Shown: positions 171 through 12,673 of the stretch, piece after piece | How the letters are laid out: every line of letters begins with the position of its first letter | Position numbering within the stretch: the stretch's first letter is position 1 | Virus record (IMG/VR): IMGVR_UViG_2671180864_000011 | Strand: one strand, 5' to 3' | From: a virus | Lineage: Duplodnaviria > Heunggongvirae > Uroviricota > Caudoviricetes | Length of the DNA stretch: 12,827 bases | The notes under the pieces: model-generated | Databases searched by the model: none | The model's input: only the letters and a program-made list of their open reading frames with translations | Told to the model about the DNA's origin: nothing | Translations under genes and position numbers: made by a program

Positions 171-548
171 TCAAATCCCCAGTGAAGTCACCATTGTCCT
201 GAGAACTTGCAGAACGTCATGATCATAACTTCCATCCAAACCGCGACGGCGAATTGCTTCTCGTATTACCGGAAGCAGTTCGCTGGAAATCTCGGTGCAT
301 ATTTCACCTGATAATACGCTTGGCTCAAGTGAGAATATTGGTGAACTTACGGTCTTGGTCTCGACAGTTTCAGAGTCAGTGCCAACATTATAAAGCTCAA
401 CGAAAGCGGTCTTGATTTTCCGGGCCAGATCTTTTGCTGGCTCGCTTGCAATATCTTTCCCGATTTCTCGCAGCACAGAATGCAATGTATGAGCTGCTGT
501 TTTCTGTACATCAGACGGTAAATCTTTAAATTCCATCGTCAGCCTCAT
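171..548 (-). CDS. hypothetical protein (125 aa), distal gene of a leftward early operon
   Basis: Uninterrupted 125-codon ORF. Its first ATG overlaps the stop of the upstream ORF (TGATG); a second in-frame ATG 12 nt downstream is preceded by GAGG. No family motif recognisable by eye. Confidence 0.5.
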   Translation of the reverse strand: MRLTMEFKDLPSDVQKTAAHTLHSVLREIGKDIASEPAKDLARKIKTAFVELYNVGTDSETVETKTVSSPIFSLEPSVLSGEICTEISSELLPVIREAIRRRGLDGSYDHDVLQVLRTMVTSLGI

Positions 549-754
549 CAGTCAGTGTTTCTGGCTAACCAGCAACGCGCGCCAGATTCGGTTTTAAACG
601 TTTTGCTTTTGGTATACGTCATGGCGGTAAACGTTCCATCCTGGTTAGGGAACACGCCGCACACCAGAGATTCGTTGTTGCCAAGATCGATAGTATCCAT
701 GCTGACCTCATTTCCCCTTAACGCCGGGGTGGCGGAACAAAAAACCTGCTGCAT
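548..754 (-). CDS. hypothetical small protein (68 aa from the ATG at 754; 50 aa if started at the ATG at 700)
   Basis: Minus-strand ORF downstream of the operator pair at 882..922. The internal ATG (plus 698..700) has a GAGG Shine-Dalgarno 5 nt upstream; the ATG at 754 has none. Start is uncertain. Confidence 0.4.
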   Translation of the reverse strand: MQQVFCSATPALRGNEVSMDTIDLGNNESLVCGVFPNQDGTFTAMTYTKSKTFKTESGARCWLARNTD

Positions 755-881
755 AGTTAAAGATTGAACCCTGCCGTCATGTTCTTACGCCTCGGGCTGG
801 CTACTTAACCCCTGACCACTGTCTGGTAACTCGAAGTATTGCCCTGCATTCTGTGGGGCGGGGTGGGTTGACGCCTGAAAC

Positions 882-922
882 AATAGCATCATTATTTTTT
901 TGATGTAAATAGCATCGCTATT
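882..922. promoter_or_regulatory. OL-like operator pair: two 15-bp dyads at 882..896 (AATAGCATCATTATT) and 908..922 (AATAGCATCGCTATT)
   Basis: Same motif AATAG-N5-CTATT as the two dyads between the divergent repressor and cro-like genes, with the same 25-26 bp centre-to-centre spacing. Sits between the parE terminator and the leftward genes. Confidence 0.55.
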
Positions 923-937
923 GTTTTTTGTTGGGGC

Positions 938-962
938 AAGAAAAAACCACCCTAAGGTGGTT
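938..962 (-). terminator. Rho-independent terminator candidate ending the repressor-antitoxin-toxin operon
   Basis: Perfect 7-bp inverted repeat AACCACC (945..951) / GGTGGTT (956..962) with a 4-nt loop, followed on the minus strand by TTTTCTT. Lies 17 bp past the parE stop. Confidence 0.5.
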
Positions 963-978
963 CTGTCGGCGGGAATAA

Positions 979-1269
979 TTAACTGTTTTTGCCTGGATAC
1001 TGTCTTCGAGAATGCACAATATTTACTACTTCTATGCTTGATGCTGTTACTCGGTAAAGGATGATGTAGTTAGGATGAGTTACAATTTCACGAAGACCAA
1101 GAACTCGCTCGCTTGGAGGATACAGGTAAGGATGCTCTGTGAGCGGCAAAACGGATGTTTCAATTCGAATTTTCATTCTGCGTGCTGCCGCGGGATTTTC
1201 TTTAGCTATGTAGGCTACGATCTGGCGCAAATCATCACGAGCAGATGGTAGCCATAAAACGGGTAACAT
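979..1269 (-). CDS. parE: ParE/RelE-family type II toxin (ParE2-like)
   Basis: 96-aa ORF with typical ParE/RelE length and sequence character (N-terminal LPVLWLPSARDDLRQIVAYIAKENPAAA, C-terminal IVNIVHSRRQYP). Its start overlaps the stop of the upstream small ORF (shared position 1269), as in toxin-antitoxin pairs. Confidence 0.85.
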   Translation of the reverse strand: MLPVLWLPSARDDLRQIVAYIAKENPAAARRMKIRIETSVLPLTEHPYLYPPSERVLGLREIVTHPNYIILYRVTASSIEVVNIVHSRRQYPGKNS

Positions 1270-1463
1270 TATTCACCTCTGTGAGTTGCAGCAGCAATTT
1301 GGGCAATAATTTGTTCCATTTCCGCCATTACCTCATCATGCGGAATCGCCGGGCGGGGATCCGCGAGGCTTGCTGCTACTTTGGCCCGCAGCCATTCGTT
1401 GTAACTATTTTCTTGCTCAACTGTCTCAAATTCTGAAACCATTGGGGAAAGGACTGTACTCAT
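1269..1463 (-). CDS. small antitoxin partner of the ParE toxin (PaaA2-like)
   Basis: 64-codon ORF immediately upstream of and overlapping parE, with an AGGAGA Shine-Dalgarno before its ATG. Acidic, helix-prone small protein. Size and position match the antitoxin of the three-component paaR2-paaA2-parE2 loci described in E. coli O157 prophages. Confidence 0.7.
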   Translation of the reverse strand: MSTVLSPMVSEFETVEQENSYNEWLRAKVAASLADPRPAIPHDEVMAEMEQIIAQIAAATHRGE

Positions 1464-1482
1464 TTTACATATCTCCTCTGAT

Positions 1483-1983
1483 TTAGGCGCGACGGCCTTT
1501 TTGTGCAGCTAACCACCGCGCAACCGTACGATCCATTGATTCTTTTTTATCTTTCATCTCCTGAAGCATGTGTTCTTGATCTTCTTTCGGAAAAGCTCTG
1601 AACGTATGGATTAAATCTCGTTCCATCGGCTCTACGGCAAACGGTAGTTCATCCTCTGTTTGTTCTGTGTCTGCTGGTAATGCGACTATGTTATCTTGCT
1701 GTGGTTCTCGACAATACATCCTTGCAATTTGCAGCAAATCTACCATGTCTGGCCTGATTGACTCAGGGGGAACTTTCAGTAAGCCAGCAAACTTTAGAAC
1801 AGCCTCAAGGTTTAGTGGGGTTTGACCATTTAGGTAGTGACTTACCGCCCCTTGTGTTGAAAACCCCATAATTTCCGCCGCACGTTCCTGAGTCAATCCC
1901 AACTGAGATTTCTTTGCCATCCAGATTTCTTTCAGTCTTCTGGCGGCGTTGAGGTCGGTGTCTGACAATGATTTTCTTTTCAT
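1483..1983 (-). CDS. XRE-family HTH transcriptional repressor (CI-like prophage repressor / PaaR2-like); the ORF also extends to a GTG at 2013
   Basis: HTH segment LTQERAAEIMGFSTQGAVSHYLNGQ. C-terminal ~80 aa are acidic with no S24 peptidase-like region. Divergent from a cro-like gene with dyad operators between them. First gene of the operon containing the antitoxin and parE. Confidence 0.8.
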   Translation of the reverse strand: MKRKSLSDTDLNAARRLKEIWMAKKSQLGLTQERAAEIMGFSTQGAVSHYLNGQTPLNLEAVLKFAGLLKVPPESIRPDMVDLLQIARMYCREPQQDNIVALPADTEQTEDELPFAVEPMERDLIHTFRAFPKEDQEHMLQEMKDKKESMDRTVARWLAAQKGRRA

Positions 1984-2018
1984 ACATCCAATTCTAATAA
2001 GATTGCTAATCACTTTGA

Positions 2019-2058
2019 AATAGCATCACTATTTACTTTTAAAAATAACAGTGCTATT
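2019..2058. promoter_or_regulatory. OR-like operator pair: 15-bp dyads at 2019..2033 (AATAGCATCACTATT) and 2044..2058 (AATAACAGTGCTATT), overlapping divergent promoters
   Basis: Inverted half-sites AATAG/CTATT; centres 25 bp apart. A -10-like TATTAA at 2055..2060 lies 35 bp upstream of the cro-like ATG; TTGAAA at 2015..2020 is a possible -35. Confidence 0.55.
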
Positions 2059-2094
2059 AATTATGCATTGGTAACACATCACATAGGGCGGATT

Positions 2095-2358
2095 ATGAAT
2101 CTTGGAGAATATTTGCATCATTTTCATATAACCCAGAGTTCATTTGCTGAGATTGTTGGCGCATCCCAAGGGATGGTCAGCCACGTTATAACGGGGCGTG
2201 CAAAACTTACAGGAGAAAAAATATTACGTTGGTGTGAAGCAACGGGATGGGTGGTGACCCCACATGAGATTGACAGTAAAACCTACCCCAACCCAACTGA
2301 CGGCTTGCCTGCTGAGTTTCAGGCTAACACACAACCATCGGCGGGGGTTGATTCATGA
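2095..2358 (+). CDS. Cro/YdaS-like HTH regulator (ORF opens at a TTG at 2068; ATG at 2095 preferred)
   Basis: Short protein with HTH segment FHITQSSFAEIVGASQGMVSHVITGRAKLTGEKILRW. Divergent from the repressor. Its stop overlaps the next gene's start (ATGA at 2355..2358). Confidence 0.75.
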   Translation: MNLGEYLHHFHITQSSFAEIVGASQGMVSHVITGRAKLTGEKILRWCEATGWVVTPHEIDSKTYPNPTDGLPAEFQANTQPSAGVDS

Positions 2359-2780
2359 AAATCAAGCATGAACACATCCGCATGGCGATGAAAGCCTGGG
2401 CGCATCCGGACGGTGAAAAAGTTCCGGCAGCTGAAATAACCAGGGTTTATTTCGAACTGGGAATGACGTTTCCGGTTCTGCATAACGACAGCAAGCACAA
2501 CACGCTTTATCTCAACACCCAAAAGATTTTCCGTTGGCTGGATAAAGACACCCCTGACGCTGTTGAAAAAATTCAGGCGTTGTTACCTGCGATCGAAAGG
2601 GCAATGCCACCTCCGCTGGTGGCTCGAATGCGCAGCCACAGTTCAGCTTATTTTCGGGAACTGGTGGAGACGCATGAACGACTGGTGAGAGACGCTGATG
2701 ATTTTGTCGCAGTGGCAATCGCCGGTTTCAATCAGATGAACCGTGGTGGCCCGGCAGGAAATGCTGTGGCAGTACATTGA
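2355..2780 (+). CDS. YdaT-like protein (proposed CII-type regulator; historically annotated as a toxin)
   Basis: 141-aa ORF translationally coupled to the cro/YdaS-like gene, in the position and size of ydaT in Rac-type prophages. Family assignment is by gene order and recollection, not a search. Confidence 0.55.
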   Translation: MKIKHEHIRMAMKAWAHPDGEKVPAAEITRVYFELGMTFPVLHNDSKHNTLYLNTQKIFRWLDKDTPDAVEKIQALLPAIERAMPPPLVARMRSHSSAYFRELVETHERLVRDADDFVAVAIAGFNQMNRGGPAGNAVAVH

Positions 2781-5431: not shown

Positions 5432-5854
5432 ATGGCAAAAGTATTTACACAGGAAGAGCGGGAAAAAATTAAGGGGCAGGTTGTTGAACTCGTACGCCAG
5501 AGTGGGCGCGAGACGTTACGACAACTGGAAGCTAAAACCGGGGCGACAAGATATTTAATAAGCGTTCTCGCCAGAGAGCTGGTTGCCAGTGGGGATGTAT
5601 ACAACTCTGGCTACGGGTTATTCCCGTCTGAACAGGCTCGTAAGGACTGGCAAAACGCCCGCAAAAAACTCTCGAGGGCAAAGCTGAAGAAACCATCTGT
5701 GGTTGATCCGGACCTTATCTGGTCATTACCAGACGGAGAAATACGCCGCTACGACAGACATCAGAACATAATCTGTCGCGAGTGCCGGAAGAGTGAAGTT
5801 ATGCAGCGTGTACCGGCTTTCTATCAGGGTGATTTTCAGGAGGCGGTACTGTGA
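5432..5854 (+). CDS. hypothetical protein (140 aa), possible winged-helix N-terminus and C-terminal CxxC
   Basis: ATG at 5432 (track ORF opens at a TTG at 5417). A diverged, 5'-truncated second copy at 8744..9133 differs mostly at synonymous sites, which argues the reading frame is real and under selection. Confidence 0.6.
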   Translation: MAKVFTQEEREKIKGQVVELVRQSGRETLRQLEAKTGATRYLISVLARELVASGDVYNSGYGLFPSEQARKDWQNARKKLSRAKLKKPSVVDPDLIWSLPDGEIRRYDRHQNIICRECRKSEVMQRVPAFYQGDFQEAVL

Positions 5855-7470
5855 GTGAAATTAGCTATCAGGCTTCAATTACCGCTGGCATTCGCATCAA
5901 AGGAGAGGAGCATGGAAATAAAACCAGAAGATGAGTTAAGCAATATTGTTTTATTTCCGGTAAAAGAGGATAACCCTCGTAATCAGGTTAATTTTCTTTA
6001 TGAGCCATCGGAAAGACCATATTGCCATCACGCTTCTGTCCGGGTTGACGAAAAAGAGCGTCAGGTCCGCTGTAAAATTTGCGGTGCAGTTGTGGAGCCA
6101 TTTGACTGGATGCTCTCTGTGGCGAAAAGAGAAACCAGACTGGCAGATGATGTAAGGCTCTTGCGCCAGGAGGAGCGGGAAAGGCGAAAAAATATAGAAA
6201 AGCTAATCCAGATTGAGCGTAATGCGAAAGCGCGGATACGCAGGGTGACAAAATATAGCCCCGAATAATCAAGGTTATTTCTGGAAGTCAAGTCGTGAGT
6301 GATGAGGACTAACAAATACGGTGAACTCGATAAAGAGATTCAGGACGAACTGGAGGCCAGGAATGATTGACAAATCACCAAGTGAGTTCAGCTACAAAGA
6401 TTTATTGTCATAACGGGTTATGAGATCGACTTGGTGCGTGATATTCTTCGGGCCAGTTTGCTATGCGCCACCATGAGATGTTATGGCCCGCATGTTTGAT
6501 ACATTAGGATTTTACATTATGAATGTGCAACATTTTGATTTTTTTACAGATAATGAGTTTTCTAATCTGGAAAGATATCAAACTTGTAAAGCCATGGCCA
6601 AAGGTTATGCGGGCAATTACAAAACCGGGCAGTCAAGGTTGATGCATGCCCGCTCATACTGCTTCAGCATCGTAGCTGCATATTGGGATACCCTTGCAAA
6701 AAAGCAAAAAAGCAGCATTAAAATGAGGGCAGTACCGCACACTGTTTACATAGAAGACATTCCATGTGATGCACGCGAGCTCGCTGAACGAACAGGTGAG
6801 CTTATTGCTCAATTTCCGGCGGAGGACGCTGGATATCTGATTGGGTCAATTTATACGGTAATGCTGCCATCCGCTTACCGTTCGGAATTGGGGGCTTACT
6901 ATACCCCCCCACCTTTGGTAGCGCGTCTCTTGGACCTGGCTGAAAAGTCTGGTGTTGATTTTTCTCATGCATCGGTTATTGATCCTGCGTGTGGTGGCGG
7001 TGCATTTTTGGCACCAGTAGCCATTCGAATGTTAAAAAAAGACAAGGGGTCTTCCCCTGAATGGATGTTGAGGAGAATCAGTCGTCGTTTAAAGGGGATA
7101 GAAATCGATCCATTTGCGGCTTGGATGAGTTTGGTATTGCTCGAATCTGTACTAATGCCACTATGTGTAAAGGTAAAACGTAGATTGCCTGAAGATACAA
7201 TTATTGTTGCTGATGCGCTTCAGCAAGATAAATTTTCTGGTTATGATCTTGTGGTAGGGAATCCGCCTTACGGACGTGTCACTCTCGATATTAAAACGAG
7301 AGAAAAATATTCTCGTTCGTTATTTGGTCATGCAAATCTATATGGATTGTTCACCGACTTAGCTGTTCGCATGGTTAAAGAGAAAACAGGAGTTATTGCA
7401 TTTCTTACGCCAACTTCTTTTCTTGGTGGGCAGTATTTCACCGCGCTGCGAACCCTTTTGACCGAAAAAA
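5465..7470. repeat. copy 1 of a ~2.0-kb direct repeat (140-aa gene, zinc-ribbon gene, leader, methyltransferase 5' half)
   Basis: Collinear with 8744..10749 at a constant offset of 3279 bp. Encoded proteins are identical from about 5710 onward; the first ~245 bp carry multiple substitutions. Confidence 0.85.
5912..6268 (+). CDS. hypothetical zinc-ribbon-like protein with basic coiled-coil tail (118 aa), copy 1
   Basis: Strong Shine-Dalgarno AAAGGAGAGGAG before the ATG at 5912 (track ORF opens at a GTG at 5855). C-H-H...C-K-I-C spacing suggests a metal-binding ribbon; C-terminus RLLRQEERERRKNIEKLIQIERNAKARIRR. An identical copy lies at 9191..9547. Confidence 0.6.
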   Translation: MEIKPEDELSNIVLFPVKEDNPRNQVNFLYEPSERPYCHHASVRVDEKERQVRCKICGAVVEPFDWMLSVAKRETRLADDVRLLRQEERERRKNIEKLIQIERNAKARIRRVTKYSPE

Positions 7471-7526
7471 ATTGGCTAATGAGGTGTACTGGCAATAGCG
7501 GACACTACCATTTGTTCTTTTTTTAA
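6483..7526 (+). pseudogene. 3'-truncated copy of the N6-adenine DNA methyltransferase gene
   Basis: First 329 codons are identical to the intact gene at 9762..11594. Homology ends at 7470, followed by 9 unrelated bp and the IS left end at 7480. The ORF then reads through unrelated sequence to a stop at 7526. Motifs X, I and IV are retained; the C-terminal domain is lost. Confidence 0.8.
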
Positions 7527-8341
7527 GCAGCCATCTGATGATATTTTTCCCTGAAGGCTGCCGGGGAGATATTCCCCAGACGAGAGTGACGACGCTGACG
7601 ATTGTAGAAAATCTCAATGTATTCCCGTATTACTGAGATGGCTTCATCCCGGTTATTAAAACGATAGTGGCTCAGGCTCTCATTTTTCAGCGTTCCCCAG
7701 AAGCTTTCCATCGGAGCGTTGTCGTAACAGTTACCTTTACGCGACATTGATGTTTTCAGACCAGACTGCTCCTGTATGACCCGGTAATCGTATGCGCAGT
7801 ACTGTGAACCTCGATCAGAGTGGTGGATTAGCCCGGCAGGTGGGCGCTGGCTCCTGAGCGCCATAAACAGGGCTTTACCTGTCAGCTCTTTTGTCATGCG
7901 CTCTCCCATGGCGTAGCCGACAATTTCGCACGTATAAACATCTTTGATGCCAGCGAGGTACAACCATCCCTCCTGTGTGGCAACATACGTCAGGTCCGCC
8001 ACCCAGACCTGATTTGGTGCTGTAGGAGCGAACGTCTGGTTCAGCAGATTTGGCGCAACTGGCAGATTGTGGTTCGAGTTCGTAGTCGCTCTGAACTTGC
8101 GTTTCTGCTTACAGCGTAGCCTTAGCTCCTTACGAAGACGTGCCAGTCGGTCACGACCAACGATGATGCCATTCTCTGCCAGCTCCGTCTGGAGCCGCCG
8201 GGTTCCATATGTTTCGCGAGTGCGGATATGTGCCACCTTAATCTCCAGTTTTAGCCGCTCATCACTTTGTTTTCTGTCTGAGGGTTCATGCTGTACCCAG
8301 TTGTAATAACCGCTCCTGGATACACCAAATACCTGACACAT
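7523..8341 (-). CDS. IS3-family transposase OrfB (DDE catalytic domain), normally made as an OrfAB fusion by -1 frameshifting
   Basis: 272-aa ORF in the -1 frame relative to orfA. Integrase-type catalytic core typical of IS3 OrfB (VWVADLTY ... HHSDRGSQY ... NAPMESFWGTLK). Confidence 0.85.
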   Translation of the reverse strand: MCQVFGVSRSGYYNWVQHEPSDRKQSDERLKLEIKVAHIRTRETYGTRRLQTELAENGIIVGRDRLARLRKELRLRCKQKRKFRATTNSNHNLPVAPNLLNQTFAPTAPNQVWVADLTYVATQEGWLYLAGIKDVYTCEIVGYAMGERMTKELTGKALFMALRSQRPPAGLIHHSDRGSQYCAYDYRVIQEQSGLKTSMSRKGNCYDNAPMESFWGTLKNESLSHYRFNNRDEAISVIREYIEIFYNRQRRHSRLGNISPAAFREKYHQMAA

Positions 8342-8376
8342 CGCTTCAATGGGAAATTGTTGTCGCCATTGTTCGA

Positions 8377-8679
8377 TTAACGCGTATTTTTCAGCGACTC
8401 CTGTGCAAAATACGCTGTTGCTTTTTTTAATATATCTCGCTCAAGGCGAGCTTCATTTAACGCCTTACGCAGTTGCAGAATTTCAGATTCCAGTTCAGCC
8501 ACCGTGCGGGAACCAGGAGTACCGAGCCCTTTTCTGGCGGCGGTAACCCATTGTCCTAAAGTGCCTTCAGGAAGAGATAATCGGGAAGCGCCTTCACTGA
8601 TCGAAAGTTGATTTTCAGGAACCGTTCTGACAGCTTCGGCTTTGAACTCTTTAGAGTAACGTTGGGTTTTTCTGCTCAT
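8377..8679 (-). CDS. IS3-family transposase OrfA (HTH DNA-binding subunit)
   Basis: 100-aa ORF with a leucine-zipper-like C-terminus (ELESEILQLRKALNEARLERDILKKATAYFAQ) ending just after the slippery run. Confidence 0.85.
   Translation of the reverse strand: MSRKTQRYSKEFKAEAVRTVPENQLSISEGASRLSLPEGTLGQWVTAARKGLGTPGSRTVAELESEILQLRKALNEARLERDILKKATAYFAQESLKNTR
8422..8428 (-). other. programmed -1 ribosomal frameshift slippery run (A AAA AAA G on the minus strand) for OrfAB
   Basis: Seven consecutive T on the plus strand inside the orfA codons for L-K-K-A, in the orfA/orfB overlap. Confidence 0.6.
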
Positions 8680-8743
8680 TATTAGCTCCTTCTGATGCCA
8701 TTCTATTTCAGGAAGGAGTGTCCGTTAAACTCAGGCTACCTCA

Positions 8744-9133
8744 AAAATTAAAGGGCAGGTTGTTGAACTTGTACGTCTGAGCGGTCGCGAGACGTTGCGG
8801 CAACTGGAAGCCAAGACAGGTGCGACAAGATATCTGATGAGTGTTCTCGCCAGAGAGCTGGTTGCCAGTGGCGATGTATACAACTCTGGTTACGGGTTAT
8901 TCCCGTCTGAACAGGCGCGTAAGGACTGGCAAAACGCCCGCAAAAAACTCTCAAGGGCAAATCTGAAGAAACCATCTGTGGTTGATCCTGACCTTATCTG
9001 GTCATTACCAGACGGAGAAATACGCCGCTACGACAGACATCAGAACATAATCTGTCGCGAGTGCCGGAAGAGTGAAGTTATGCAGCGTGTACCGGCTTTC
9101 TATCAGGGTGATTTTCAGGAGGCGGTACTGTGA
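8744..9133 (+). pseudogene. 5'-truncated, diverged second copy of the 140-aa hypothetical gene
   Basis: Homology to 5465..5854 begins immediately after the IS right end and lacks the first 11 codons. About 20 nucleotide differences but only 3 amino-acid changes (Q to L, I to M, K to N). The track ORF 8795..9133 begins at an internal Met. Confidence 0.7.
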
Positions 9134-9190
9134 GTGAAATTAGCTATCAGGCTTCAATTACCGCTGGCATTCGCATCAAAGGAGAGGAGC

Positions 9191-9547
9191 ATGGAAATAA
9201 AACCAGAAGATGAGTTAAGCAATATTGTTTTATTTCCGGTAAAAGAGGATAACCCTCGTAATCAGGTTAATTTTCTTTATGAGCCATCGGAAAGACCATA
9301 TTGCCATCACGCTTCTGTCCGGGTTGACGAAAAAGAGCGTCAGGTCCGCTGTAAAATTTGCGGTGCAGTTGTGGAGCCATTTGACTGGATGCTCTCTGTG
9401 GCGAAAAGAGAAACCAGACTGGCAGATGATGTAAGGCTCTTGCGCCAGGAGGAGCGGGAAAGGCGAAAAAATATAGAAAAGCTAATCCAGATTGAGCGTA
9501 ATGCGAAAGCGCGGATACGCAGGGTGACAAAATATAGCCCCGAATAA
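9191..9547 (+). CDS. hypothetical zinc-ribbon-like protein, copy 2 (protein identical to copy 1)
   Basis: Same Shine-Dalgarno and ATG context as copy 1; translation identical. Confidence 0.6.
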   Translation: MEIKPEDELSNIVLFPVKEDNPRNQVNFLYEPSERPYCHHASVRVDEKERQVRCKICGAVVEPFDWMLSVAKRETRLADDVRLLRQEERERRKNIEKLIQIERNAKARIRRVTKYSPE

Positions 9548-9761
9548 TCAAGGTTATTTCTGGAAGTCAAGTCGTGAGTGATGAGGACTAACAAATACGG
9601 TGAACTCGATAAAGAGATTCAGGACGAACTGGAGGCCAGGAATGATTGACAAATCACCAAGTGAGTTCAGCTACAAAGATTTATTGTCATAACGGGTTAT
9701 GAGATCGACTTGGTGCGTGATATTCTTCGGGCCAGTTTGCTATGCGCCACCATGAGATGTT

Positions 9762-11594
9762 ATGGCCCGCATGTTTGATACATTAGGATTTTACATTATG
9801 AATGTGCAACATTTTGATTTTTTTACAGATAATGAGTTTTCTAATCTGGAAAGATATCAAACTTGTAAAGCCATGGCCAAAGGTTATGCGGGCAATTACA
9901 AAACCGGGCAGTCAAGGTTGATGCATGCCCGCTCATACTGCTTCAGCATCGTAGCTGCATATTGGGATACCCTTGCAAAAAAGCAAAAAAGCAGCATTAA
10001 AATGAGGGCAGTACCGCACACTGTTTACATAGAAGACATTCCATGTGATGCACGCGAGCTCGCTGAACGAACAGGTGAGCTTATTGCTCAATTTCCGGCG
10101 GAGGACGCTGGATATCTGATTGGGTCAATTTATACGGTAATGCTGCCATCCGCTTACCGTTCGGAATTGGGGGCTTACTATACCCCCCCACCTTTGGTAG
10201 CGCGTCTCTTGGACCTGGCTGAAAAGTCTGGTGTTGATTTTTCTCATGCATCGGTTATTGATCCTGCGTGTGGTGGCGGTGCATTTTTGGCACCAGTAGC
10301 CATTCGAATGTTAAAAAAAGACAAGGGGTCTTCCCCTGAATGGATGTTGAGGAGAATCAGTCGTCGTTTAAAGGGGATAGAAATCGATCCATTTGCGGCT
10401 TGGATGAGTTTGGTATTGCTCGAATCTGTACTAATGCCACTATGTGTAAAGGTAAAACGTAGATTGCCTGAAGATACAATTATTGTTGCTGATGCGCTTC
10501 AGCAAGATAAATTTTCTGGTTATGATCTTGTGGTAGGGAATCCGCCTTACGGACGTGTCACTCTCGATATTAAAACGAGAGAAAAATATTCTCGTTCGTT
10601 ATTTGGTCATGCAAATCTATATGGATTGTTCACCGACTTAGCTGTTCGCATGGTTAAAGAGAAAACAGGAGTTATTGCATTTCTTACGCCAACTTCTTTT
10701 CTTGGTGGGCAGTATTTCACCGCGCTGCGAACCCTTTTGACCGAAAAAACTACTCCGTATGCCCTTGATTTCGTCACTGACAGGGATGGGGTCTTTGACG
10801 ATGTTCTCCAGGAAACAATGTTGACAGCATTCAAGGCGGGAGAACATAAAGTTCGGGCCCAGGTATCCTCACTTGTCCCTAAGGGGTTGAACAAAGCAAA
10901 AATTGAGAAAATAGGTAATGTTGATATAGAAAAAGGTGGAGCAACGTGGCTTTTGCCACGCGTTAAAGATGATGCCTGTTTTCTTAATGTATTAAAACAG
11001 ATGTCTACGCGTTTAGCTGATCTGGGATACTCAGTCTCTACAGGTCAGTTAGTCTGGAATCGATTTAAGTCGCAGTTGCGTACGACGAAAGGAAAAAATA
11101 GCTACCCATTAGTCTGGGCGGAATCAATAACTTCAGCTGGTTTTCGTTTTAGTGCAGACAGAAAAAATCATGTTCCCTATATCGATATAACCCCACAACA
11201 GGGTTTCCTTGTGACAAAATCTGAATGTGTGCTTGTTCAGCGGACAACATCGAAGGAACAGGACAGAAGGATTTTAGCGGCAATTTTACCTCAGGGATTT
11301 ATAGATGAAACTGGTGGCGTAGTAGTTGAAAACCATATTAATATTGTATATTCAAACGGATTGTTCTCTGCGGTTCGCCCTGATGTTATTGATATGCTAC
11401 TTAATTCGCATGTTGTCGATCGGGCGTTCAGGTGTATAAGCGGAAGTGTTGCTGTTTCGGCCTATGAATTGAATTCAATCCCGTTGCCTTCTCTGGAGCA
11501 GGTGATGGAGATTCAATCGTTAATTGATGCTGGCGTCCACAGACGGATTATTGAGAGAACTATCGCTGGTTTCTATGGAGTGATGATTGCATGA
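9762..11594 (+). CDS. gamma-class N6-adenine DNA methyltransferase (type II RM-type; possible true start at ATG 9798)
   Basis: Motif order X (GAYYTPPPLVARLL), I (DPACGGGAFL), IV (VVGNPPYGR), followed by a ~340-aa C-terminal region consistent with a target-recognition domain. AGGA lies 9 nt before the ATG at 9798; the ATG at 9762 has no Shine-Dalgarno. Confidence 0.85.
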   Translation: MARMFDTLGFYIMNVQHFDFFTDNEFSNLERYQTCKAMAKGYAGNYKTGQSRLMHARSYCFSIVAAYWDTLAKKQKSSIKMRAVPHTVYIEDIPCDARELAERTGELIAQFPAEDAGYLIGSIYTVMLPSAYRSELGAYYTPPPLVARLLDLAEKSGVDFSHASVIDPACGGGAFLAPVAIRMLKKDKGSSPEWMLRRISRRLKGIEIDPFAAWMSLVLLESVLMPLCVKVKRRLPEDTIIVADALQQDKFSGYDLVVGNPPYGRVTLDIKTREKYSRSLFGHANLYGLFTDLAVRMVKEKTGVIAFLTPTSFLGGQYFTALRTLLTEKTTPYALDFVTDRDGVFDDVLQETMLTAFKAGEHKVRAQVSSLVPKGLNKAKIEKIGNVDIEKGGATWLLPRVKDDACFLNVLKQMSTRLADLGYSVSTGQLVWNRFKSQLRTTKGKNSYPLVWAESITSAGFRFSADRKNHVPYIDITPQQGFLVTKSECVLVQRTTSKEQDRRILAAILPQGFIDETGGVVVENHINIVYSNGLFSAVRPDVIDMLLNSHVVDRAFRCISGSVAVSAYELNSIPLPSLEQVMEIQSLIDAGVHRRIIERTIAGFYGVMIA

Positions 11595-12673
11595 ATCTGC
11601 CTGTTGTTCCCCCATTGAATGTTATCCGGGAAAGATTACAATTAATTTTCCCTGAAGGGACTGAGAATCGTGGATATTTAATTCGGGAAATAGCTGCAAA
11701 AACAATTTTTGTCATGTTTTATGCTGGTGCGGTTGAGGGGCTGGGGCGATGGATAAGGCCCAGCCAGGTTGTAAGTATGGGAGATTCGCAGGCTGCTCTT
11801 ACTGATGATGCGTCCAGAGAAAGCTGGGTAAAGATGACTTTCTCTAAACAAAAGATAAGGCCTGCTGATGCATGGTATGCGGAAAATACGCGTGAGCCAA
11901 TACGTGATGAAACTATAAAAAATGGCCTAATACCTTGCAATGCAATTGTTGAGCGTAAAGGTATACCCACCACATCCTCTCGTCCTCGTTACAGTTTGAA
12001 TCGCTCTTTTGCAGCACTCTTTGATGCCGGGCTTGAAGGAGATTCGCTGCTGAGTGCAATAAGTTCCTGGCAAGAAAATCATTTGAACAAAGCCGCTCTT
12101 GCTAGGTTGCGTTTATTGAAATCAGGGGCAGTGATTGCTGCTGATGCCGTAGTCGTCACTTTCCCAAATGGAGAGAAGAGAACTTTAGCTCCGGGCCCGT
12201 CAAGTACAATAGCTAAGGCCGTCATCGAAGTTTTTGCTCCTAATTTTCTTAAGAATCCAACTGTGCTCTGGTTGTCTGAATCCGGGAATAAAGTTGTTGC
12301 TCAGGATGATGTATTGGCAAAAGCATTGGGGCTGAATATTGATGCCTCAAAAGCACTTCCAGATATTATTTTGATTGATTTGGGAGAGGACCGAACGGGT
12401 TCGGACATGCTTGTAGTTTTCACTGAAGTAGTTGCGACAGATGGGCCTATAAACAGGGAACGAAAAGTTACTCTCACTCATTTGGCTATTGACGCTGGGT
12501 TCAGCGAGAAAAATCTTGCATTCCTTACGGCATTTATGGACAGAAGTGCTCTGCCTTTTAAAAAGGCAATACCAGAATTGGCGTGGGGATCTTATGCATG
12601 GTTTGCTTCTGAACCGGAGCACTTAATTGATCTTCGGGATGGTTATCCGGTAAAGATCAGCCAGAGAAAATGA
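11591..12673 (+). CDS. putative restriction endonuclease partner of the methyltransferase (possibly BsuBI/PstI-like); function not proven
   Basis: 360-aa ORF whose ATG overlaps the methyltransferase stop (ATGA at 11591..11594). Same AT-rich composition as the methyltransferase. No unambiguous PD-(D/E)xK motif identified by eye, so the call rests on gene context. Confidence 0.5.
   Translation: MNLPVVPPLNVIRERLQLIFPEGTENRGYLIREIAAKTIFVMFYAGAVEGLGRWIRPSQVVSMGDSQAALTDDASRESWVKMTFSKQKIRPADAWYAENTREPIRDETIKNGLIPCNAIVERKGIPTTSSRPRYSLNRSFAALFDAGLEGDSLLSAISSWQENHLNKAALARLRLLKSGAVIAADAVVVTFPNGEKRTLAPGPSSTIAKAVIEVFAPNFLKNPTVLWLSESGNKVVAQDDVLAKALGLNIDASKALPDIILIDLGEDRTGSDMLVVFTEVVATDGPINRERKVTLTHLAIDAGFSEKNLAFLTAFMDRSALPFKKAIPELAWGSYAWFASEPEHLIDLRDGYPVKISQRK

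Follow-up and report, generated by a model that had tools for sequence, protein, structure and literature searches.

A heteroimmune variant of the CP-933P immunity region with a PaaA-ParE toxin-antitoxin pair and operator-like dyads at both ends of the putative repressor operon

Introduction

CP-933P (Sp12) is a cryptic prophage of E. coli O157:H7 that harbors a paaR2-paaA2-parE2 / ydaS-ydaT region (Jurenas 2021, PMC8630535; Prolic-Kalinsek 2023, PMC9986795). Earlier work, Hallez 2010, is cited in PMC8630535. Experiments on this region revealed a CI-like repressor, OR, OL/PL, a leaderless PRM, YdaS in the role of Cro and YdaT in that of CII (PMC8630535). OR is footprinted by both PaaR2 and YdaS, which also repress PR, PRM and PL; YdaT activates PRE, and the locus is bistable (PMC8630535, PMC9986795). 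PL933P is an active promoter that is repressed about 100-fold by PaaR2 and YdaS, and the leaderless nature of PRM was established by 5′ RACE and N-terminal protein sequencing (PMC8630535). According to the same paper, which cites De Bruyn 2019 on this point, PaaR2 is octameric in solution. The toxin-antitoxin pair was described as one that "replaces rexA and rexB" (PMC9986795). Stabilisation of an unstable plasmid by RAE2 is the sole demonstrated phenotype, and ParE2 activity was detected in neither transcriptional state (PMC8630535).

Here, we analyzed a stretch of 12,827 bp (the window) of a prophage whose host is probably Shigella sonnei. The locus described below is very probably the immunity region of a lambdoid prophage of the Qin/Rac/CP-933P type, with a lambda-style bistable switch in which the repressor binds a set of inverted repeats. 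The design itself is already known from the CP-933P experiments (PMC8630535), and the locus is a heteroimmune variant of it.

Results

The putative repressor operon and its cargo

Between the two intergenic regions of interest the following features were identified:
1483..1983, minus strand: immunity repressor, 166 aa, ATG at 1983
1269..1463, minus strand: PaaA-type antitoxin, 64 aa (PF21217, E 3e-23; PDB 3zbe, PaaA2, E 1.4e-23)
979..1269, minus strand: ParE-family toxin, 96 aa (PF05016, E 1.8e-17; PDB 5cw7, ParE2, E 6.7e-37)
938..964, minus strand: intrinsic terminator, AACCACC-UUAG-GGUGGUU followed by UUUUCUU (-15.1 kcal/mol, z -3.47)

The start of the repressor is identical to the PGAP start in the close relative L001. 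Its N-terminal domain, arm included, is homologous to that of lambda CI (E 2.5e-9 to 1lmb in phmmer against PDB, residues 12-91), and in the same alignment the residues opposite lambda E34 and D38 are E and E. These two lambda residues belong to the positive-control patch. The AlphaFold model of the repressor consists of a five-helix N-terminal domain, a disordered linker and helices 119-129 and 133-165; along the chain, predicted helices at residues 8-90 form the HTH domain, residues 94-111 the disordered linker and residues 119-165 a PaaR-type helical tail. Homology to PaaR2 is confined to the last 44 residues (52% identity, E 5e-15); to another PaaR-type repressor, identity is 56% over the last 64 aa. 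The gene order of a PaaR-type upstream regulator is present, including a 19-nt gap to paaA, and the DNA-binding domain belongs to a different family from that of PaaR2. A Peptidase_S24 domain was not found by Pfam in the 166-aa protein. Since it lacks this domain, is only 166 aa long and carries a PaaR-type tail, the repressor would be CI-like in action and is not a full member of the CI/LexA family, and SOS induction by self-cleavage is not expected. Octamerisation and looping would be extrapolated from the short PaaR2-like tail; PDB entries 7nkv and 8c3k include PaaR2 residues 1-71 only.

The antitoxin is 75% identical over 56 aa to PaaA2 of CP-933P and the toxin 67% identical to ParE2. The 19-nt gap between the repressor gene and paaA, the overlap of the paaA stop with the parE start and the single terminator after parE suggest that repressor, paaA and parE form one operon. 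This terminator was missed by a consensus scan and was clear on folding; relatives carry a terminator-like stem with a T-run at the same place, the stem sequences of which differ. The sequence-only reading had concluded from such co-transcription that toxin expression would be tied to lysogeny, a statement that is not to be read as toxin activity, since ParE2 activity is seen in neither state of CP-933P.

The same reading placed the pair where lambda carries rexAB. No homology to RexA or RexB was found, the cargo proteins being PaaA2-type and ParE-type according to Pfam, and the analogy is positional only. In relatives the stretch between OR and OL contains PaaA/ParE, HigBA, HipA_2 (HipA-like) together with DUF3037, an unknown pair of 150 and 98 aa, or nothing. 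When the cargo of the relatives was subjected to PADLOC, HigBA matched PD-Lambda-2 A/B and HipA_2 with DUF3037 matched PDC-M66, which are defence or candidate-defence models. A role of PaaA/ParE as a rex-like anti-phage exclusion (abortive infection) system, instead of or besides an addiction module, would agree with its rexAB position and with these matches in the same slot, but it is unlikely, as neither PaaA nor ParE matches any PADLOC model and CP-933P shows plasmid stabilisation only, without ParE2 activity in either switch state (PMC8630535). The toxin-antitoxin pair would most likely be an addiction module, making it costly to lose or replace the immunity region.

Operator-like dyads at both ends

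The sequence AATAGNNNNNCTATT has two exact matches in the window (908-922 and 2019-2033), where 0.01 are expected from shuffles and none of the 200 shuffles reached two. Allowing up to one mismatch to AATAG-N5-CTATT, exactly four sites are present in the window (882-896, 908-922, 2019-2033 and 2044-2058), compared to 0.33 expected from window shuffles, and again none of 200 shuffles reached this number. Four copies of one dyad had been claimed from the sequence alone; the four sites hold, but they are not identical copies, as two are exact and two have one mismatch. The claimed pair spacing of 25-26 bp is correct, with start-to-start distances of 26 and 25 bp. From base composition, chance alone would give an estimated 4-5 or so isolated exact sites in 5 Mb, and essentially no pairs at a spacing of 24-26 bp. 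In an independent repeat search the four dyads were the top direct-repeat family, and the two pairs emerged as inverted copies of a single promoter/operator unit of about 45 bp. Extended inward, the dyad reads AATAGCA-N-TGCTATT, and the added positions, which the search pattern does not cover, are 69% C and 64% A among 32 distinct sites.

The first pair lies, as had been proposed, between the divergent repressor and cro-like genes, inside the 111-bp gap from the ATG at 1983 (minus strand) to the ATG at 2095. The right region comprises:
2044..2058: OR1-like operator, AATAACAGTGCTATT, one mismatch, overlapping the PR -10, position conserved in relatives
2019..2033: OR2-like operator, AATAGCATCACTATT, exact, overlapping the PR -35 and abutting the PRM -35, present in relatives too
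1996..2010: OR3-like weak operator, AATAAGATTGCTAAT, two mismatches, between the PRM -10 and -35
1991..2019, minus strand: PRM-like promoter from the promoter scan, -35 TTCAAA (2019..2014), 17-nt spacer, -10 TAGAAT (1996..1991)
2032..2060, plus strand: PR-like promoter read from the sequence, -35 TTTACT (2032-2037), 17-nt spacer, extended -10 TGc-TATTAA (2052-2060)
2095..2358, plus strand: Cro-like HTH protein in the YdaS position, 87 aa (HTH_3, E 5e-4)
2348..2365: exact YdaT operator OM, TTGATTCATGAAAATCAA (TTGATT-N6-AATCAA), at the cro/ydaT junction, the CII/PRE-equivalent position
2355..2780, plus strand: YdaT-family regulator, functional equivalent of CII, 141 aa (PF06254)

The weak site at 1996-2010 is a fifth, degenerate one that the sequence-only reading had missed. 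Alone it is not significant in the window; its position is kept in all relatives, and in the distant ones (L011-L019) it has one mismatch. Between the end of the PRM-like -10 and the repressor ATG there are 7 nt, so that a repressor mRNA without a leader is implied, and a gap of 6-7 nt is retained in all relatives. The center of the site at 2019-2033 would be at about -43 from the PRM start inferred in this way. The PR-like unit mirrors that of PL, of which it is an inverted copy in the repeat search, and is conserved in relatives; it was not called by the consensus promoter scan because its -10, TATTAA, is without the final T.

The HTH_3 match of the Cro-like protein scores 20.5 bits, under the curated Pfam cut-off of 23 bits. 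Among relatives the protein is 54-85% identical with an invariant SQGMVSHV, and no similarity to YdaS of CP-933P was found. YdaT is 77% identical to its CP-933P counterpart, and the motif of its operator was defined by footprinting (PMC9986795).

The second pair was found, in agreement with the sequence-only reading, beyond the toxin gene and the terminator, past the parE stop (979) and the minus-strand stem-loop and U-run at 938-964. The left region comprises:
908..922: OL2-like operator, AATAGCATCGCTATT, exact dyad, overlapping the PL -35, present in relatives too
882..896: OL1-like operator, AATAGCATCATTATT, one mismatch, overlapping the PL -10, position conserved in relatives
880..909, minus strand: PL-like promoter from the promoter scan, -35 TTTACA (909..904), 18-nt spacer, extended -10 TGc-TATTGT (885..880)
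755..870, minus strand: PL transcript leader, conserved across heteroimmune prophages
548..754, minus strand: YdfA-like gene (DUF1391), first of the leftward operon (PF07151, E 3e-28)

OL thus has two recognisable sites, not three. Transcription from the PL-like promoter would run leftward, through the conserved leader and on to the ydfA-like gene, and the position of the promoter relative to the leader is that of PL933P in CP-933P. Homology of the leader with heteroimmune prophages stops at 868-870, directly before the operators. A structured antitermination RNA in the leader (755-876, minus strand) was considered and dropped, as the folding of this segment does not surpass that of shuffles (z +0.24). 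A search of Rfam had no match at gathering scores, with chance-level matches only in 500-2400. The start annotated for the YdfA-like gene in L001 corresponds to a shorter product of 51 aa. Close relatives have a leftward operon of the ydfA-ydfB-ydfC-dicF-dicB type behind PL. In the window the operon is truncated by IS1 at 1-41, and IS600 and a duplication are found to the right; with the prophage damaged in this way, there may be no viable phage left for the switch to control.

The dyads track the repressor domain in relatives

Relatives were gathered by a homologous-protein search followed by retrieval of the encoding contigs; a scan of genome contigs with the repressor protein yielded no confirmed relative. 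The comparative set consists of the window and 16 related loci, several of them near-identical, amounting to about 123 kb, and the repressor N-terminal domains are 47-100% identical. The CP-933P locus itself is L014, which was found via a primer sequence from Table S3 of the published CP-933P work. L002 was rejected as the CP-933P module because its repressor starts with MMSALEV... and not with MQKKE.

Apart from a single stray match (L001:1532), dyads with up to one mismatch are confined to the two regions in the window and, throughout the comparative set, to OR and to the pair that lies upstream of the conserved PL leader. In the three heteroimmune prophages (L002, L003 and L014; 19 kb) there is none, and prophages with other repressors carry different repeats at the operator position. 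The OL pair is kept in every relative, whatever the cargo or the terminator sequence, and always lies directly upstream of the PL leader. In the relatives the dyads accompany the repressor's DNA-binding domain together with the cro-like gene; they do not follow the toxin-antitoxin genes.

The PL leader, parE, paaA, the tail of the repressor and ydaT are homologous to those of CP-933P. Homology to that prophage breaks at 870 and a second time over about 1549-2343, a stretch that takes in the N-terminal domain of the repressor, OR and cro. These two breaks indicate that both operator-bearing islands were replaced together. A full OR unit (at least 80% coverage) was detected in 72 of 5426 complete E. 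coli genomes, and the count for the whole module is also 72 of 5426, a comparison of totals and not of genome sets; further matches among those listed in the OR-unit search were partial (E~4). None of the isolated phages in INPHARED encodes the repressor, the best matches being lambda-type CI proteins of about 31% identity. Phages share DNA only in the flanks, and in phage Tritos the shared DNA stops at 868 and resumes at 2343.

As the cro-like gene is co-inherited with the repressor N-terminal domain and the operators, binding by the two proteins is inseparable in the comparative data. The dyads might therefore primarily bind the Cro-like protein in the YdaS position, with the 166-aa repressor recognising something else: the gene shares a heteroimmune island with the repressor domain and, like that domain, co-segregates with the dyads, and its product has an HTH with an invariant recognition segment. 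We consider this improbable. The recognition-helix motifs of the two proteins are near-identical (TQGAVSHYLN in the repressor, SQGMVSHVITG in the Cro-like protein), so that shared sites are the simplest reading; besides the dyads, the repeat search found no repeat family common to both intergenic regions; and in lambda and CP-933P the two proteins share their operator regions (PMC8630535).

That the leftward pair at 882-922 represents chance AT-rich palindromes or part of the parE terminator, and not an operator, is very improbable. Such a reading would be favoured by the AT-richness of the region, by the mismatch in one of the two sites and by promoter-like matches that are not enriched there (4 compared to 3.0 in shuffles), but all four sites fall at the two predicted places, the pair is retained upstream of the PL leader in every relative and replaced by other repeats in heteroimmune prophages, and its CP-933P equivalent is an active, repressor-controlled promoter (PMC8630535). 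Autoregulation of the operon through the dyads by the toxin-antitoxin complex, as is usual for type II toxin-antitoxin operons, was rejected as having next to no likelihood, since the 64-aa PaaA has no DNA-binding domain (PF21217, the PaaA2 toxin-binding module, is its sole Pfam match) and the dyads persist unchanged in relatives without PaaA/ParE.

Discussion

Several observations bear out the lambda-like OR/OL layout that had been suggested: the CI-type repressor domain, PaaA and ParE followed by a single terminator, operator pairs that overlap promoter-like elements and dyads that track the repressor in relatives. Operators at both ends of the repressor-toxin operon had likewise been proposed, and the same architecture is known experimentally from CP-933P (PMC8630535).

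The sequence features, together with the homologies and the way in which the dyads co-vary with the repressor domain, lead us to infer the following switch. Dimers of the 166-aa repressor would bind the 15-bp dyads AATAGCA-N-TGCTATT. At 2044-2058 and 2019-2033 they would cover the -10 and -35 of PR and silence the cro-like gene, ydaT and the replication genes, and the dimer at 2019-2033 would adjoin the PRM -35, which is where lambda CI sits when it activates PRM. Lying inside PRM, the weak site at 1996-2010 may let the repressor limit its own synthesis when it is abundant. The maintenance transcript is predicted to start at or next to the repressor ATG and to run via paaA and parE to the terminator at 938-964, so antitoxin and toxin would be made only as passengers of the repressor transcript, with a PaaA that has no DNA-binding domain of its own. 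On the left, repressor at 908-922 and 882-896 would cover the -35 and -10 of the PL that drives the early-left operon (ydfA..., dicB-type). The PaaR2-like helical C-terminal tail probably mediates higher-order assembly, and looping between OL and OR over 1.1 kb could follow. The Cro-like protein (SQGMVSH compared to TQGAVSH in the repressor) probably competes for the same sites, and YdaT at 2348-2365 would give a CII-like establishment input.

A broader view is doubtful and put forward tentatively. The stretch between a PaaR-tailed repressor and its OL/PL might serve as a bay for interchangeable cargo that is expressed from the lysogenic promoter, in which case PaaA/ParE would be an anti-phage module of the rex kind. 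As a separate matter, the PaaR tail of 44 residues might be a portable assembly module: joined to DNA-binding domains of unrelated families, two-HTH forms of 244 aa among them, it would stand in for the domain that is sensitive to RecA.

The locus opens no new question. It indicates that the CP-933P design, a toxin-antitoxin pair without its own regulator on the repressor transcript between OR and OL, is not a one-off: the same toxin-antitoxin cassette and repressor tail are joined to a lambda-CI-type DNA-binding domain, another cro-like protein and matching operators at both ends. Further, an immunity type that occurs in Shigella besides the 72 E. coli genomes is thereby given a clear operator consensus, AATAGCA-N-TGCTATT.

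Comparison with known systems

The modules of Qin (dicA-dicC/dicB) and Rac (racR-ydaS-ydaT) in E. coli K-12 share YdaT-family and DUF1391 genes with the locus, whereas they have no toxin-antitoxin genes after the repressor and possess other repressors and operators. The leftward operon type of close relatives is also that of Qin; in this window it is cut by IS1.

With lambda cI-rexA-rexB the locus has in common the repressor N-terminal domain with its arm and three OR sites, which are spaced 25 and 23 bp here. The site centers relative to the maintenance-promoter start (about -20, -43 and -68) nearly match those of lambda OR3, OR2 and OR1. Passenger genes on the repressor transcript, followed by a terminator and then OL/PL, are shared as well, as predicted here, and so is a leaderless repressor mRNA, as implied here. 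Unlike in lambda, a helical tail of 45 residues takes the place of an S24, RecA-cleavable C-terminal domain, the cargo is a ParE toxin-antitoxin pair and not RexAB, YdaT stands in for CII and OL has two sites.

The likeness to CP-933P comprises gene order and orientation, operators at OR and beyond the toxin gene, an exact YdaT operator, PL leader DNA of 93% identity and a maintenance-promoter -10 located 6-7 nt from the ATG. In contrast, the repressor's DNA-binding domain is a lambda CI homologue unrelated to that of PaaR2, the operators are of the AATAGCA-N-TGCTATT type and not the GTTTAGTAA-type repeats of CP-933P, two OL sites are recognisable compared to three, the Cro-like protein is unlike YdaS and the immunity specificity differs. 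Together with CP-933P, the locus makes up a natural heteroimmune pair in which specificity, looping and addiction can be tested.

Paired dyads at the proposed operator regions

The sequence-only reading had described four AATAG-N5-CTATT dyads in two pairs, each with 25-26 bp spacing, and this was borne out. Exact copies were found at 908-922 and 2019-2033 (two in the window; shuffles expect 0.01, and 0/200 reach two). When up to one mismatch was allowed, exactly two further sites, 882-896 and 2044-2058, joined them, giving four where shuffles expect 0.33 (0/200 reach four). Spacings within the pairs are 26 bp and 25 bp. In a repeat search of the window the four dyads formed the top direct-repeat family, and each pair including its spacer was an inverted copy of the other. 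Over the sites of related loci, a bias at positions just inside the searched pattern points to a fuller dyad, AATAGCA-N-TGCTATT. A fifth, degenerate dyad at 1996-2010 has two mismatches and is alone not significant; its position is kept in relatives. The pairs lie at OR, between the repressor and cro-like genes, and at OL, beyond parE and a terminator, within the following features:

755-870, minus strand, leader downstream of the leftward early promoter PL
909..880, minus strand, leftward promoter (promoter scan): TTTACA, 18-nt spacer, TG-extended TATTGT
938-964, minus strand, stem-loop with U-run (-15.1 kcal/mol, z -3.5)
979-1269, minus strand, ParE toxin, 96 aa
1269-1463, minus strand, PaaA-type antitoxin, 64 aa
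1483-1983, minus strand, repressor, 166 aa, ATG at 1983
2019..1991, minus strand, second leftward promoter (promoter scan): TTCAAA, 17-nt spacer, TAGAAT
2032-2060, plus strand, rightward promoter (read from the sequence): TTTACT 2032-2037, 17-nt spacer, TGc-TATTAA 2052-2060
2095-2358, plus strand, cro-like HTH protein, 87 aa
2355-2780, plus strand, YdaT-family protein

At the leftward promoter 909..880, dyad 908-922 overlaps the -35 and 882-896 the -10 element. The rightward promoter mirrors it and is overlapped by dyads 2019-2033 and 2044-2058. The -10 of the second leftward promoter ends only 7 nt ahead of the repressor ATG, which implies a leaderless repressor mRNA; PGAP chose the same ATG as the start in an E. 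coli locus of 95% identity. Counted from the inferred start of the repressor transcript, the three OR sites are centred at about -20, -43 and -68, a close match to lambda OR3, OR2 and OR1.

Over its first ~90 residues the repressor is a homologue of the lambda CI N-terminal domain, and the similarity takes in the N-terminal arm (E 2.5e-9). An S24 peptidase domain was not found in the repressor. In its AlphaFold model five helices make up the N-terminal domain, residues 94-111 form a disordered linker, and the C-terminal part has two helices, 119-129 and 133-165.

Conservation of the dyads in related prophages

Repressor homologues were gathered and then their loci; those repressors that share the N-terminal domain range from 47% to 100% identity. 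The named sources were E. coli, E. albertii, Shigella sonnei and Salmonella diarizonae, the others being read-archive (Logan/ENA) assemblies. In every locus sharing this domain, dyads with at most one mismatch were confined to OR, with two strong sites and a weak third, and to a pair that immediately precedes the conserved leftward leader; a single stray match occurred in ~123 kb. In 19 kb from three heteroimmune prophages no such dyad was found. Relatives also keep the promoter hexamers, the spacings and a 6-7 nt gap from -10 to ATG. The OR unit (at least 80% coverage) was present in 72 of 5426 complete E. coli genomes, and the whole-module count was equal, the match being in counts alone. 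The cro-like protein co-segregates with the dyads (54-85% identity), and its invariant SQGMVSHV resembles TQGAVSHY of the repressor; judging by these sequences, the two proteins probably share their binding sites.

Between the repressor and OL the cargo differs among loci:

PaaA/ParE: window, L001, L004-L010
HigB/HigA: Salmonella, L011-L013 (L011:4112-4839; matches PADLOC PD-Lambda-2 A/B)
HipA-like (HipA_2) kinase and DUF3037: L015, L016 (L015:3787-5360; matches PDC-M66A/B)
Absent or a small ORF: L017, L018
Uncharacterised pair, 150 aa and 98 aa: L019 (L019:3825-4573)

Since the dyads stay while the cargo varies, they go with the repressor gene and the cro-like gene and not with the toxin-antitoxin pair.

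Two alternative cargos of relatives thus match PADLOC defence or candidate-defence models, and repressors with the PaaR tail, the C-terminal helical segment shared with PaaR2, also exist without any toxin-antitoxin pair. Repressors of 243-255 aa (L015:3001-3735, L017:3001-3768, L019:3001-3732) carry tandem HTHs, first the lambda-CI-like domain seen in the window and then an entire PaaR-type HTH with its tail, and their loci show AATAG dyads only. The 166-aa repressor looks like such a protein minus its second HTH. In the closest E. coli relative a second, separate toxin-antitoxin pair of the ParD/ParE family is annotated in RefSeq ~4 kb right of the immunity region (L001:11790-12352).

Other features of the prophage

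An IS1 end at 1-41, which matches the IS1 of several phage records at 97.6-100% identity, adjoins the leftward early operon and cuts off the DNA beyond, where close relatives have ydfB, ydfC, dicF and dicB. An IS600 copy at 7478-8742, 100% identical to copies on a Shigella sonnei 53G plasmid, has a 2,007-bp segment on either side in direct repeat (5464-7470 and 8743-10749, 98.9% identical). The arrangement looks like the result of duplication mediated by the IS, or of two related prophages having recombined. The first methyltransferase gene copy is truncated at the IS (6483-7526, 347 aa) and the second is full length (9762-11594, 610 aa). The latter forms a restriction-modification pair (9762-12673), in which an N6-adenine methyltransferase (Eco57I/N6_Mtase domains) is followed, with overlapping stop and start codons, by a BsuBI/PstI-type restriction endonuclease (both Pfam domains, E 9e-45 and 1e-30).

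Comparison with CP-933P

The interpretation of a lambda-like OR/OL layout with PaaA/ParE replacing rexAB was right, and the design is a published one. In CP-933P of E. coli O157:H7, PaaR2 of paaR2-paaA2-parE2 is a functional CI analogue (Jurenas et al. 2021, PMC8630535), and rexA and rexB are replaced by the toxin-antitoxin pair (PMC9986795). PaaR2 and YdaS gave footprints on the intergenic region and repressed PR, PRM and a PL promoter lying beyond the pair, paaR2 is leaderless, a PRE-like promoter is activated by YdaT, and bistability of the locus was shown (PMC8630535). The YdaT operator was defined as TTGATT-N6-AATCAA (PMC9986795), and an exact copy lies at 2348-2365 of the window.

For the window we infer that the repressor binds the dyads, that the promoters are active, that looping takes place, and what the toxin-antitoxin pair does for the prophage. 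As the role of the pair addiction is favoured, the rival explanation being phage exclusion. The paaR2-paaA2-parE2 module stabilised an unstable plasmid, and ParE2 activity was detected in neither state of the CP-933P switch (PMC8630535).

The leader downstream of PL (~115 nt) is almost invariant over prophages of four different immunity types and exceeds the flanking genes in conservation. Neither an Rfam match nor a significant predicted fold was found for it. Phage Tritos has a different CI and Cro, and its homology to the window ends at 868 and restarts at 2343. CP-933P is homologous over the leftward leader (93%), over parE, over paaA together with the repressor tail (76%) and over ydaT (79%). 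Homology breaks at 870 and again over the stretch that holds OR, cro and the N-terminal domain of the repressor. The two operator-bearing islands were therefore exchanged together, despite the shared toxin-antitoxin cassette between them.

In the recovered CP-933P locus ParE, PaaA and YdaT are 67%, 75% and 77% identical to their counterparts in the window. YdaS has no similarity to the cro-like protein, and PaaR2 and the repressor have just their last 44 residues in common (52% identity). The locus is a heteroimmune member of the CP-933P design, in which a lambda-CI-type DNA-binding domain is grafted onto the PaaR tail and both OR and OL carry new operators to match.
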